This document shows positions 29,007-39,330 of a DNA stretch of 64,000 nt, piece after piece. The stretch spans positions 1,201,639 through 1,265,638 of the forward strand of contig OZ253440.1 of assembly GCA_965261055.1 (NCBI GenBank). The letters run 5' to 3'. Within the stretch, counting starts at the first letter, position 1. Every line of letters begins with the position of its first letter. This DNA is from Fibrobacteria bacterium. GTDB taxonomy: Bacteria > Fibrobacterota > Fibrobacteria > UBA11236 > JADFYW01. The notes below the pieces were generated by a model that had not been told where the DNA came from, made no database searches, and worked only from the letters and a program-made list of their open reading frames with translations. Made by a program: the position numbers and the translations under genes.

Positions 29007-29184
29007 ATTACAACTTTCTTATACTAGGGTTAATCTAGAGCAAGAACTTTTTGGGAAACAACACCATATCATGTACTTATCATACTCATAGCCTTATCCT
29101 AGCGAATTCACCAGTCGTAAAATTTCCATCATCTATGGTAGCTATAGAACAACTCTAGTCTTGCTCAATCAAAACCTACATGCC

Positions 29185-30128
29185 TCAACGTATAATGAAC
29201 CCAAATCCTGATGTTTGTGTAGAATCAAAAACAGATGTCGCTATAACGCGAACTAATCCAGCAGAAACGGTTCTCAACAATCCATTATTATCAATTGTAG
29301 CTTTAGTTGAGTCACTAAGGGACCATATTACATCTTGCGATACGCCACTGTCAGCGACAATAGACATTGTAAATTGGATAGTAGCACCGATAGCATGGAA
29401 CGTCTCAACAGAATTTATATCAAATTGTGTAATTCTAGGTGGAGCTGTAATTAAAATTTCTACCGATGCTAATTTTGTCACATTGAAAGAAGATCTTACT
29501 ACAATTGCTGTTGTTCCTTCTGCTATTCCCGTCACAAGCCCATTGTTGTCAACCGTAGCTACACTTGGATCATTTGATGACCAAGTTACTGCATCCGAAG
29601 CCCCATCTTCCGTTGCAACTGTCACAGTTAAATTTCCTGTTCTAGTAGCCTTTAGAGTCAACTGAGCAAGCGAAACTGATACTGCAGTAACTTCAGGGGT
29701 TAATGTAACTGCAATTAGGGATGTAGCTGTTTTGGTGCCATCAAACACAGATGTAACTGTAATAATCGCTGTTCCTGCACTTCTTGCGGTTATAAGTCCA
29801 GTAGTTGTAACGGTAACTACACTTGTATCACTTGATGACCAACTTACTGCATCCGAGGCTCCACCTTCCGTCACAACCGTTAGCTGTTAATTGCTGATCG
29901 TTAACAGCGAGGATTATGGAAGAAGGCATTGATACTGAAATAACCTTAGGAGGTAAGGTCACCGTGACTATAGATGTAGATGTTTTGGTAGCCATCAAAC
30001 ACAGATGTAACTGTAATAGTTGATGTTCCTGCTCCTATTGTGGTTACAAGTCCAGTAGTTGTAACGGTAGCTACATTTGGATTACTTGATGACCAACTTA
30101 CTGCATCCGAGGCTCCACCTTCCGTCAC
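29185..30128 (-). pseudogene. 3' portion of frameshifted Big_2 lipoprotein paralog (unit 1); C-terminal 229 aa intact in another frame
   Basis: ORFs 29185-29874 and 29946-30128 encode sequence near-identical to the C-terminus of the 1584-aa paralog. Single-base indels at about 29880, 29990 and 30143 break the frame. Confidence 0.7.
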
Positions 30129-31500
30129 AACGTTAGCTGTTAACTGCTGACTTTCGAGAAACCATTAGAGATAGAGTGGAAGGAGAAACTGATAATCCAC
30201 TAACCCGAGGAGATAAGGTTACTGTGACTATAGATGTAGATGTTTTGGTAGGATCAAACACAGATGTAACTGTAATAGTTGATGTTCCTACTCCTATTGT
30301 GGTTACAAGTCCAGTAGTTGTAACTGTAGCTACACTTGGATTACTTGATGACCAGCTTACTGCATCCGAGGCTCCACCTTCCGTCACAACGTTAGCTGTT
30401 AATTGCTGATTTTCGTTAACTCTTAAAGATAGGGTGGAAGGAGAAACTGATAATGAAATAACCTGAGGTGATAAGGTCACTGTAACTACGGATGTAGCCG
30501 TTTTGGTACCATCAAACACAGATACAGCCGTAACAGTCGATGTTCCTACTCCTTTTCCAAATATACGTCCAGTATTTGACATTACAACTACACCAATATT
30601 ACTTGAAAACCAGCTTACTGCATCCGAGGCTCCACCTTCCGTCACAACGTTAGCTGTTAATCGCTGATTTTCGTTAACTCTTAAAGATAGGGTGGAAGGA
30701 GAAACTGATAATGAAATAACCTGAGGTGATAAGGTCACTGTAACTATGGATGTAGATGTTTTGGTAGGATCAAACACAGATACAGCCGTAACAGTCGATG
30801 TTCCTACTCCTTTTCCAAATATACGTCCAGTATTTGACATTACAACTACACCAATATTACTTGAAAACCAGCTTACTGCATCCGAGGCTCCACCTTCCGT
30901 CACAACGTTAGCTGTTAATCGCTGATTTTCGTTAACCATTAGAGATAGAGTGGAAGGAGAAACTGATAATGAAATAACCTGAGGTGATAAGGTCACTGTA
31001 ACTATGGATGTAGATGTTTTGGTAGGATCAAACACAGATACAGCCGTAACAGTCGATGTTCCTACTCCTATTGTGGTTACAAGTCCAGTAGTTGTAACTG
31101 TAGCTACATTTGGATCACTTGATGACCAGCTTACTGCATCCGAGGCTCCACCTTCCGTCACAACGTTAGCTGTTAATTGCTGACTTTCGTTAACTCTTAA
31201 AGATAGGGTGGGAGGAGAAACTGATAATCCACTAACCCGAGGAGATAAGGTCACTGTAACTATGGATGTAGATGTTTTGGTAGGATCAAACACAGATGCA
31301 ACTGTAATAGTTGATGTTCCCACTCCCATTGCAGTTAAAATCCCATTGTTTGTAACTGTAGCTACACTTGGATTACTTGATGACCAACTTACTGCATCTG
31401 ATGCTCCACCTTCAGTTGCAACCGCGGCAATTAACAGATAATTTTGGTTGACCATTAGAGATAGAACGAGAGGAGAAACTGATAATGAACCAATTAATGG
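29890..31500 (-). repeat. 258-bp tandem Big_2 repeat array (about 6 copies) in the unit-1 gene
   Basis: Antisense ORFs at 30176 and 31208; repeat units recur every 258 bp (…GGASDAVSW[SF]SSN…ATVTTTG…). Confidence 0.8.
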
Positions 31501-32655
31501 TGGTAATACAACGACAATCGTTGCTTGAGAAAATTTAAAAGCATCAGCTTTAGACTTTGCCAAAATGACTGTAGTTCCTAGAGACCTAGCCGTTACCAAT
31601 CCATTTGGACTCACTGTTGCGATTAATTCATTATTTGAAAGCCATAATATCTCTTTTGAGGCTCCTTCTTCAGCATTGATAACTACATTTAATTGCACTA
31701 CTGAATCAACCTCAACCCTAAACTCTGGAGAAGTAATCAACAAAGAAAATACTTGTGGAGATCGAATGGCTGTCATTATTTCTTCTGCTTTTACTTTGAT
31801 TACAGTTGAAATAGTTTTACTGAAATCAAAGTCTGATGTGGTTGTAATAGTAACTATTCCTTCAGCAATGCCTGTAACGACCCCTTCGTTATTAACTGTG
31901 GCTATATTAGGATCACTTGATTCCCACAATACACGCCTAGAGGCTCCTCCTTGAGTCACAATTGTTGCTTCTAGCTGTACACTAGAATCAACCATTACTA
32001 CAGAATCTAATGATGAAATTTGTAAAGAAAAAACCGATGGTTGATTTGTTAACTCCGTAGTTACATTGATCGTTAACGAAGCTGACTTTGTTGAATCAAC
32101 AGTAGAAGTTGCTATAATCACAGCCGCACCTTCATTGATTCCTAACGCAACTCCATTAGCATTAACTATAATAGAAGAATTGCTTGATGACCATCTTAAA
32201 GCATCCGAGGCTCCTCCCCGAACATAAACCCGACTGACAAGATTCAGTGCGTCACCCACTCCTATGTTTGATACTTCTGATAAGATCTTTACGGAATCAA
32301 CAGACGGAACATCTTCTGTCTGTTCAATCACTTCAATATTTAAACTAACAAATTTTGTTTCGTCAACAACTGACGATATGGTAATCGTAGCCTCACCTAC
32401 AGCAATACCTATCACCAATCCTTCATCACTCACTTTAGATATAGTTGAATCACTAGACTTCCATTTTAGAAAATCTGAAATACCTTCTTTAACCGCTACT
32501 CTAGCCTCCAACTGTAGGGTAGAGCCGACTTCCACACTAGTGTCTTTCGAAATAGACTCAACATATGCGATACCTGAAGAAAAGTCTGCAACAAATGTAT
32601 CTTCATTACAATACGTTAATAATAATGAAATAAACAGTAAAATAAATCTTTTCAT
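30133..32655 (-). CDS. Big_2 repeat lipoprotein, unit-1 copy, truncated by frameshift (probable start MKRF at 32655; ORF caller extends to 32736)
   Basis: Signal plus lipobox MKRFILLFISLLLTYC-NEDTF. The N-terminal 400 aa are about 95% identical to the 33951-38705 product. Only about 6 of the 258-bp repeats before premature termination. Confidence 0.65.
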   Translation of the reverse strand: MKRFILLFISLLLTYCNEDTFVADFSSGIAYVESISKDTSVEVGSTLQLEARVAVKEGISDFLKWKSSDSTISKVSDEGLVIGIAVGEATITISSVVDETKFVSLNIEVIEQTEDVPSVDSVKILSEVSNIGVGDALNLVSRVYVRGGASDALRWSSSNSSIIVNANGVALGINEGAAVIIATSTVDSTKSASLTINVTTELTNQPSVFSLQISSLDSVVMVDSSVQLEATIVTQGGASRRVLWESSDPNIATVNNEGVVTGIAEGIVTITTTSDFDFSKTISTVIKVKAEEIMTAIRSPQVFSLLITSPEFRVEVDSVVQLNVVINAEEGASKEILWLSNNELIATVSPNGLVTARSLGTTVILAKSKADAFKFSQATIVVVLPPLIGSLSVSPLVLSLMVNQNYLLIAAVATEGGASDAVSWSSSNPSVATVTNNGILTAMGVGTSTITVASVFDPTKTSTSIVTVTLSPRVSGLSVSPPTLSLRVNESQQLTANVVTEGGASDAVSWSSSDPNVATVTTTGLVTTIGVGTSTVTAVSVFDPTKTSTSIVTVTLSPQVISLSVSPSTLSLMVNENQRLTANVVTEGGASDAVSWFSSNIGVVVMSNTGRIFGKGVGTSTVTAVSVFDPTKTSTSIVTVTLSPQVISLSVSPSTLSLRVNENQRLTANVVTEGGASDAVSWFSSNIGVVVMSNTGRIFGKGVGTSTVTAVSVFDGTKTATSVVTVTLSPQVISLSVSPSTLSLRVNENQQLTANVVTEGGASDAVSWSSSNPSVATVTTTGLVTTIGVGTSTITVTSVFDPTKTSTSIVTVTLSPRVSGLSVSPSTLSLMVSRKSAVNS

Positions 32656-32674
32656 AAAAAACACCTTTTTTGGC

Positions 32675-38705: not shown

Positions 38706-38744
38706 ACATCCTCCTATTTCCTATGAATAGATAGTTAAAGAAAC

Positions 38745-38780
38745 GCAGGAATGTATAAAATATTCTAAACCATGTCAAGT
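38745..38780 (-). promoter_or_regulatory. sigma70-like promoter for the unit-2 Big_2 gene (duplicate of 32675-32710)
   Basis: Identical aCTTGACAtggtttagaatatttta block at 38773-38778. Confidence 0.5.
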
Positions 38781-38820
38781 AAAAACAACTTAACATTATA
38801 AAATTAATCTCCTTATATAC

Positions 38821-39330
38821 CCTGCTTGAGCTTATTTTTTCCTTTAAAATTCGTCGTATCTGTTCTAAACCTGTTCAACAGACGGATCAAAATCAAAACA
38901 ATCTATACAAACGCTTTAGATTTTAGAAAATCCCTTAACGATTCCATTCCTTTCTTCTTTGGCATCTTTGTTTAAGCCAATACAGGCTACTTTATCATTG
39001 TTTTCTGCTAATTTTTGTAATAATTCCATCCATTTATTTTCGCTCCAATTTAGTACTGTTCCAAAAGAGCAATCCCTAGGATGAAACCAAAATCAGAAGC
39101 GAAATCAAAATAAAGCCCTTCCTGCCCTTGGCGACAACAAATAATCATTTTAGACTAGTTAGTACTTATTTCCCTAAGAAAACCTTGCTAATGAGAAAGT
39201 TCTCACCCAAACTCTCCTACCCACAAACCCGTGAAAAGAATCTTTTTCTATTAGGAATCCTCAAAAAATAGAAAGAAACCACCATTTAAAGTAATTCCGA
39301 TTTAAAAATTAAATTCTATTTTCAACATCT
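38821..39330 (-). pseudogene. degraded GT9 glycosyltransferase remnant (unit-2 copy)
   Basis: About 510 bp alignable in pieces to 32762-33650 of the intact GT9 gene, with internal deletions of 140-200 bp. No ORF over 60 aa. Confidence 0.65.

Follow-up and report, generated by a model that had tools for sequence, protein, structure and literature searches.

Are the two neighbouring copies of a gene pair in an uncultivated bacterium a true duplication, and what has become of each gene since? This question is raised by positions 29007-39330 of a 64,000-nt stretch of DNA from a Fibrobacteria bacterium (assembly GCA_965261055.1, contig OZ253440.1, positions 1,201,639 to 1,265,638 of the forward strand), hereafter the window. 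The locus, set among housekeeping genes in the low-GC genome of an uncultivated member of the Fibrobacterota, consists of two units, in each of which a GT9-like glycosyltransferase gene is followed by a gene for a lipoprotein with Big_2 repeats. The tandem duplication of this two-gene segment is genuine and fairly old, and one of the two GT9 copies is dead. The history that we consider likely as a whole combines this old duplication and the loss of one GT9 copy with ongoing exchange between the two lipoprotein genes, and takes the frameshifts in one of them for consensus errors rather than mutations.

Two direct units in tandem

Both units lie on the minus strand, unit 2 from about 39342 to 33655 (5.7 kb) and unit 1 from about 33655 to 29040 (4.6 kb). 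Self-BLAST of 28001-41000 gave two direct alignments, 29512-32927 with 35562-38973 (89.2% over 3437 columns) and 29066-31487 with 33816-36250 (89.6% over 2438 columns), both at E=0, and the homology between the units spans 29066-33663 and 33816-39342 (E=0). No inverted repeats were found at the locus by a repeat search or by self-BLAST of the same interval. A preliminary description of this DNA had proposed a tandem segmental duplication in two direct units of 4.8-5.5 kb, and these alignments confirm it with slightly different unit lengths.

The two-unit structure could in principle come from assembly, with one repeat-rich locus assembled twice or two strain haplotypes concatenated. With its 21 copies of a 258-bp unit the region is indeed highly repetitive, only one assembly of the genome is known, and consensus-type errors are likely in these repeats. 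However, the units differ by about 10% in GT9 and carry large, distinct deletions, their 5' untranslated regions (5'UTRs) cannot be aligned, and a repeat subtype of one unit is missing from the other. Haplotype concatenation would also tend to duplicate the flanks, but rnhB and the PAPS-reductase gene on either side are each single copy, with the inter-unit junction at 33650-33950. Moreover, homologous scars with different deletions point to an evolutionary history and not to an assembler join. We therefore give almost no credence to an assembly origin of the second unit.

One glycosyltransferase gene intact and one dead

The GT9-like gene of unit 1 occupies 32762-33649 (minus; 295 aa, identical to the public protein P0001). 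Its open reading frame (ORF) in the window is 32762-33706 (314 aa), and the true start is almost certainly 33649, because P0001 (295 aa, 100% identical) begins there. The product aligns over its full length with 30 homologues and has all invariant residues of the 31-sequence profile, in agreement with the earlier view that this copy is intact. At the sequence level, the PF01075 (Glyco_transf_9) hit is marginal (23.1 bits against a cutoff of 22, residues 172-248 only), NCBIfam heptosyltransferase II scores 20.6 bits against a cutoff of 134.6, and a PDB profile search gave WaaF at E=0.005. Its AlphaFold2 model (pLDDT 91, pTM 0.85) has a GT-B fold closest to GT9 structures in Foldseek, where the top matches are WaaF 1psw (E=2e-8), the Veillonella GT9 protein 3tov, TibC 4rap/4rb4 and WaaC. 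Judged by this model, the intact gene encodes a distant GT9-fold enzyme, putatively heptosyltransferase-like.

In unit 2, the GT9 copy is a pseudogene of about 515 bp at 38821-39335 (minus), nearly the interval first reported (38821-39330), which keeps the segments s1, s3 and s5. Compared with the intact copy it has lost about 184 bp (s2, about 33213-33404 in unit-1 coordinates) and about 170 bp (s4, about 32920-33090), the latter encoding the invariant GPSSGPMHLASLCG motif. The conserved GPSSGPMHL motif is removed by these large deletions, and the sugar-nucleotide-binding motif is missing from this copy. A further deletion of about 16 bp and several small frameshifting indels were also found, and tBLASTn recovers only three fragments in different frames. 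Substitutions between remnant and intact gene fall on codon positions 1:2:3 as 10:7:12 (s1 and s3 combined), and this even spread indicates that the remnant has evolved neutrally for most of the time since duplication. Decay of this copy, as originally suggested, is thus well founded on both the large deletions and the substitution pattern. Subfunctionalisation, which had been offered beside decay, is unsupported; one redundant GT9 gene was simply lost.

Junction fragment and terminal scar

At the inter-unit junction lies a 171-bp GT9-internal copy, s2' (33668-33838, minus), which is non-coding and contains a stop codon. It copies GT9 positions 33211-33380 at 84-88% identity, as the preliminary description had noticed (a 170-bp copy within 33640-33945), and its differences from the intact gene are spread over the codon positions as 7:7:6. 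Just 5' of the GT9 start codon, a linker (33650-33667, minus), homologous to about 39336-39342 and to 29040-29058, forms the unit boundary. On the other side, an extra 18 bp (33839-33856) separates s2' from the 3' trailer of lipoprotein 2 (33857-33950, minus).

A second scar ends unit 1 at 29040-29090 (minus). It begins with 21 nt from the start of s2', lacks the next 138 bp of the junction copy, and continues with about 29 nt that comprise the last 10 nt or so of s2' and about 19 nt of linker, to end 3 nt short of the position for a third GT9 ATG. This terminal scar is the remnant of a third unit boundary. A scar fusing GT9 and leader sequence had been placed at 29021-29180; the GT9-fragment part is real, and the adjoining 29091-29184 (minus) is no leader but the 3' trailer of lipoprotein 1, 98.9% identical to 33857-33950.

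The boundary (linker) is therefore found in three copies and the trailer-s2'-linker junction in two, which calls for two or more rounds of duplication, or for a third unit that has since been lost, with deletions afterwards. The two scars are homologous, but their deletions differ. Together with the independent histories of the repeats described below, the three boundary copies and two junction scars bear out the earlier proposal of repeated unequal recombination. The fragment s2' (33668-33838) represents nearly the same stretch as that deleted from the remnant (33213-33404), with a common 3' boundary at GATGTTGTTT. Neither a single unequal crossover nor a 5' partial duplication was accepted as the origin of s2', since neither accounts for the scar at both ends in combination with a matching deletion in the GT9 remnant.

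Mosaic identity between the units

Lipoprotein 2 is encoded by 33951-38705 (minus; 1584 aa, intact) and lipoprotein 1 by 29185-32655 (minus; ATG start, N-terminus MKRFILLFISLLLTYCNEDT, 7.7 repeat copies). Identity between the units changes abruptly along their length. It is 86.7% in GT9 s1 and 92.7% in s3, rises to 98.5% from the GT9 stop to the -35-like box, falls to 48% in the unalignable 5'UTR and returns to 88.8% over the signal peptide and the first 50 or so codons. The next 1,120 bp, which cover the N-terminal Big_2 domains, are exactly identical (31375-32494 and 37428-38547, minus), and the remainder of the first repeat (99.2%), the last three domains (98.2%) and the trailer (98.9%) are nearly so. 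Against a background divergence of about 10%, the perfect block of 1.1 kb is no leftover of the original duplication. The best explanation of the identity blocks would be recent gene conversion between the lipoprotein paralogues. The 1,120-bp block had escaped the preliminary description.

Separate histories of the repeat arrays

Between the conserved ends, Tandem Repeats Finder detected a 258-bp period with 7.7 copies in 29512-31489 (unit 1) and 12.4 copies in 34278-37466 (unit 2). The outer repeats correspond one to one between the units (A1=B1, 100%; A7=B12, 99%; A8=B13, 99%; A9=B14, 97%). The central repeats have no such partners: A2 and A5 resemble B4, B5 and B8 (92-94%), and A6 resembles B11 (92%). 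A3 and A4 match each other at 97% but reach only 79-84% with any repeat of unit 2. Their divergence lies in an identical 67-nt patch (30545-30611 and 30803-30869, minus) with about 20 substitutions against all other repeats, which encodes FSSNIGVVVMSNTGRIFGKG where the others have SSSNPSVATVTTTGLVTTIG.

The A3/A4 subtype is absent from unit 2, and thus unit 1 is not merely a contracted unit 2; the two arrays have expanded and contracted separately. To call the unit-1 lipoprotein repeat-collapsed is too simple on the same ground. No donor of the 67-nt patch was found in the window. A diversity-generating retroelement was considered as the source of the patch and rejected, as the substitutions, inspected by eye, are not adenine-specific.

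Domains, N-termini and upstream regions of the lipoproteins

Lipoprotein 2 has a GTG start and the N-terminus (M)KRFILLFISLLLTYC, and the exact protein is present in a public collection. Its Pfam match to Big_2 (PF02368) is strong (E=1.3e-179, 17 stretches), in keeping with the earlier description of an intact 1584-aa protein, and it consists of four divergent Big_2 domains, 12.4 copies of the 258-bp (86-aa) repeat and two C-terminal domains. In lipoprotein 1, the ORFs 30133-32736 (867 aa) and 29185-29874 (229 aa) match Big_2 at E=2.6e-73 and 6.9e-30; the gene has about 12 Ig-like domains against 17 in lipoprotein 2. Only Ig-like domain families were detected in the lipoproteins by Pfam, and the Ser and Thr content of the repeats is very high. 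The N-terminal sequence MKRFILLFISLLLTY-C shows the charged n-region, hydrophobic core and Cys of a putative lipoprotein signal peptide, with a Tyr at -1 that is non-canonical for a lipobox; four other Big_2 genes of the window end this region in ...FN-C, ...FG-C or ...VN-C. Lipoprotein-type N-termini of this kind occur in five Big_2 genes of the window (...IFNC, ...IFGC, ...IVNC, ...LTYC), and the two lipoproteins are presumably exposed on the cell surface.

The 5' ends of the two genes differ in several ways. After the lipobox Cys, lipoprotein 1 reads CNEDTF and lipoprotein 2 CGGDSS; the start codons are ATG and GTG, respectively; and the Shine-Dalgarno-like sequence is AAAAAGG in lipoprotein 1 (no AGGAGG) and AGGAGGA in lipoprotein 2. 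The intergenic region upstream of lipoprotein 2 (38706-38820, minus) is promoter-like, and the best sigma-70-like match of the region, a consensus match only, stands upstream of this gene (TTGACA-17-TACATT, 38778-38750). In the corresponding region of unit 1 (32656-32761, minus), a 1-nt deletion alters the -10-like box. Matches in the promoter and terminator scan were not enriched over shuffled sequence. Effects of these 5' differences on expression or sorting are conceivable, but this is speculation.

Big_2 genes are seven in number in 40 kb of the window, and the family is strongly expanded in this genome. Another giant Big_2 lipoprotein gene lies at 4463-9717 (minus; N-terminus MFKLLLVLSALLIFNC), with about 20 repeats of about 258-260 bp and a GC content of 0.43-0.45 against about 0.33 elsewhere. 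Three further genes, 17367-19529, 19711-21888 and 22117-23184 (minus), encode Big_2 proteins with 6, 6 and 3 domains, the first two with lipoprotein-type N-termini. On the plus strand, antisense stop-free ORFs recur once per repeat (29180-29665, 33946-34431 and 77-aa ORFs at 34681-37236) and look like shadows of the codon composition of the repeats. As genes, the antisense ORFs within the repeats (161, 129, 137 and 77 aa) were rejected as such shadows, with no Pfam match.

Frameshifts in lipoprotein 1

Is lipoprotein 1 also decaying? Compared with lipoprotein 2, its last 1.3 kb contain exactly three indels, all +1 insertions (about 30155, 29990 and 29881), which jointly restore the frame. After the first of them a stop is reached at 30133, so that the first ORF, starting at 32655, encodes 840 aa. 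Over its last 229 codons (29185-29874) the gene is back in frame, with no stop and with 98% identity to lipoprotein 2, and both the 840-aa protein and the 229-aa tail are annotated in a public collection. The earlier statement that this gene is frameshifted and repeat-poor thus holds for the sequence as given; the array has 7.7 copies, however, and not about 6.

In an alignment of all repeats, each insertion lies at a difference between repeat subtypes and reads as both alleles side by side. TCTC[G]AAAG at about 30155 combines the subtypes ...TCTC·AAAG and ...AACG·AAAG, GATGG[C]TACC at about 29990 combines GATGG·TACC and GATGG·CACC, and CAGC·TAAC[G]GTTG at about 29881 combines TAAC·GTTG and AATG·GTTG. 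The same is seen in gene 4463-9717, which is split into ORFs of 666 aa and 1085 aa where a +1 "both-allele" insertion and a deletion of 2 nt fall within about 60 bp of sequence, near 7740-7800. Its broken repeat reads GTAGTAACC (GTA[G]TAACC, about 7755); the two sister repeats (8155-8416 and 7124-7385), which are 98% identical and intact, read GTA-TTACC and GTAG-AACC. No homopolymer or simple sequence repeat tracts were found at the three insertion sites of lipoprotein 1. Slippage-type phase variation, as in a contingency locus, was rejected, the frameshifts being outside homopolymer or short repeat tracts.

Precise homologous recombination or patchy mismatch repair between variants of equal length should keep the length, whereas a consensus drawn from mixed reads changes it, and hence the frameshifts are probably artefacts, that is, consensus errors in near-identical repeats. 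Such mixing could stem from mis-mapped reads or from true heterogeneity in the population.

Should the frameshifts be real instead, the locus would be undergoing a true reciprocal decay, with GT9 lost in unit 2, the lipoprotein lost in unit 1 and a return to one working copy of each gene. The sequence does contain the three insertions and, at 30133, a premature stop, unit 1 has the weaker Shine-Dalgarno-like sequence and the 1-nt deletion in its -10-like box, and the interruption of gene 4463-9717 means that Big_2 loss could be a trend of the genome. However, all three insertions are both-allele hybrids, which are not expected repeatedly from precise recombination or point mutation. Against decay stand also the in-frame, stop-free downstream 229 codons with their 98% identity and the 5' 1.1 kb identical to the working copy, and even with real insertions a shortened lipoprotein of 840 aa, with signal peptide and about 9 Big_2 domains, would still be encoded. 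We regard reciprocal decay as unlikely, but as an alternative to be taken seriously. Of the "reciprocal" decay first described, then, the GT9 half stands; the lipoprotein half is doubtful, as it depends on three both-allele 1-nt insertions.

Search for the GT9 and Big_2 pair in relatives

In both units the GT9 gene comes first, immediately 5' of the lipoprotein gene and in the same orientation, and the pair had been described as a "GT9 + Big_2 cassette". Beyond this genome's own protein at 100%, the homology search found the nearest GT9 homologues (53-56% identity) in Fibrobacterales and Fibrobacterota metagenome-assembled genomes; the collections contain no closer genome, and the window's own is not one of the species representatives. 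Lipoprotein tBLASTn gave no match at any of 49 loci with a GT9 homologue, none of them from a close relative, and Big_2 is absent from the 10 flanking ORFs scanned in seven Fibrobacterota GT9 loci. The neighbours of GT9 homologues are instead LtaS/sulfatase-like (loci L013 and L024), SIS/GmhA-like (L001), PAP2, chorismate synthase and class A penicillin-binding protein genes. A hint of an ADP-heptose donor and an LPS-core acceptor is limited to the SIS/GmhA-like neighbour in L001. Exact-protein look-ups of GT9, RNase HII and P0001 returned no encoding contig.

From these comparisons, the adjacency of GT9 and Big_2 appears to be specific to this lineage, so the cassette is not a conserved pairing, which argues against a dedicated enzyme-substrate module. 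Such a module, in which the GT9-like enzyme glycosylates the Ser/Thr-rich Big_2 lipoprotein and the pair was duplicated as a functional unit, would account for the gene order in both units and for the very Ser/Thr-rich repeats, and the protein heptosyltransferase TibC is among the best structural matches. On the other hand, the lipopolysaccharide heptosyltransferases WaaF and WaaC fit the GT9 model as well as TibC does, and no lipoprotein tBLASTn match lies near the GT9 homologues of 13 Fibrobacterota and many other genomes, where the scanned flanks have no Big_2. Moreover, one GT9 copy was lost while both lipoprotein genes persist, and the lipoprotein genes have their own promoter-like region. 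A glycosyltransferase-adhesin module is improbable on this evidence.

In two Fibrobacterota relatives, L013 (7962-10873) and L024 (5947-8836), the GT9 orthologue is directly downstream of an LtaS/sulfatase-like gene on the same strand. The homologue of that gene in the window (41759-43840, plus) is separated from the GT9 remnant by about 2.4 kb and runs in the other direction, and this difference in distance and strand indicates that the neighbourhood has been rearranged.

Flanking sequence

The left flank carries ilvC, leuB-like, aminotransferase, formyltransferase and RNase HII genes, and the right flank PAPS reductase, fumarase, the LtaS/sulfatase-like protein and PriA; the non-repeat genes scanned against Pfam matched their models near end to end. 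The PAPS-reductase gene (39370-40077, PAPS_reduct Pfam match) has its stop at 39370 and is separated from unit 2 by a unique spacer of 34 bp (39336-39369, minus), the homology with unit 1 starting at about 39342 in the alignment. At the other end, unique sequence (29007-29039) lies between the terminal scar and the stop of the convergent rnhB gene (29006). RNA genes were searched with Rfam and for tRNAs, and no match was found in the window. About 1.5 kb at 48435-49995 contain no ORF of at least 53 aa on either strand and no Rfam or tRNA match, which is long for a densely coded window.

Probable history of the locus

The following course of events would fit the observations. The array would have been built in at least two rounds, first by illegitimate and then by homologous unequal recombination, and later trimmed by deletions. 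The redundant upstream GT9 gene would have become a pseudogene early and drifted neutrally. Meanwhile, the lipoprotein genes would keep exchanging sequence by gene conversion (5' end: 100% for 1.1 kb; 3' end: 98-99%), and the internal 258-bp repeats would expand, contract and shuffle separately by intragenic recombination. The outcome would be two paralogues of unequal length, with different residues after the lipobox Cys and different translation-initiation regions.

Several points weigh against this course of events. The fragment s2' and the stretch missing from the GT9 remnant coincide almost exactly, for which a simple stepwise model gives no explanation; a single complex template-switch event or a microhomology hot spot may lie behind the match. 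Multi-mapped reads used in polishing could have removed a few true differences and so inflated the identity of the 100% block in part, and the exact figure needs care. That the three insertions together restore the frame is as compatible with a real, though odd, series of mutations as with an artefact. Finally, the nearest GT9 homologue is only 53-56% identical, which leaves the single-copy and duplicated states without a closely related genome for comparison.

Comparison with known systems

Leptospira Lig proteins are lipoproteins of 12-13 tandem bacterial Ig-like domains; the N-terminal regions of LigA and LigB are sequence-identical and diverge downstream, ligC is a pseudogene in some strains, and lig genes are recombination mosaics (PMC5370146, PMC10534446). 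The present locus resembles them in its 12 and 17 Big_2 domains, its 1,120-bp identical 5' block and its one possibly disrupted copy. However, it belongs to Fibrobacterota and not Spirochaetota, has no LigB-type C-terminal domain, and carries its copies in tandem, co-duplicated with a glycosyltransferase gene; its central repeats are far more alike (85-97%), and a role in host interaction is not known here. The Lig family is the closest analogue, and the locus is not a member of it.

Surface proteins of the Gram-positive alpha C / Rib family have long near-identical tandem repeats whose copy number changes by intragenic recombination. The long arrays of near-identical, domain-coding repeats are common to both cases, but alpha C / Rib proteins are LPXTG-anchored, belong to other domain families and have had their variation shown experimentally, whereas here variation would be read from two paralogues. 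TibC and AAH heptosylate TibA and AIDA-I. As in those systems, a gene for a GT9-fold enzyme, with TibC as a top structural match, stands directly upstream of a gene for a repeat-rich surface protein. The partner here is a lipoprotein and not an autotransporter, however, no such adjacency turned up in the relatives that were examined, and protein glycosylation is hypothetical here. With generic tandem duplication and pseudogenisation the locus shares its direct units, junction scar, lost redundant copy and gene conversion between copies. What it adds to the generic case is a piece of GT9 at the junctions and a vestigial third unit boundary, with no essential difference.

A bolder interpretation sees in the lipoprotein genes, with their 258-bp repeats, a variation system under active recombination, with copy 1 as a partly silent donor or acceptor of conversion and the both-allele indels as traces of real heterogeneity from cell to cell among the repeat arrays of the natural population. 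We consider this quite unlikely. If true, it would mean Lig- or vls-like variation in the length and sequence of a major surface protein in an uncultivated Fibrobacterota lineage, possibly coupled to a dedicated GT9-like protein glycosyltransferase.

Implications

For genome interpretation, the lipoprotein genes illustrate that a frameshift among near-identical repeats of a metagenome-assembled genome can be an artefact of the consensus. Such an artefact is recognised by the two alleles of a paralogous variant standing next to each other, and pseudogenisation should not be called from frameshifts of this kind without read support.

In summary, the locus is a further instance of a well-known type of event, ordinary genome evolution in an obscure lineage. 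It offers a clean example of duplication, early loss of a redundant enzyme gene and what would be concerted evolution of the surviving paralogues. Its biological weight is limited, and lies in the expansion of a repeat-rich, presumably surface-exposed lipoprotein family in a poorly known phylum.

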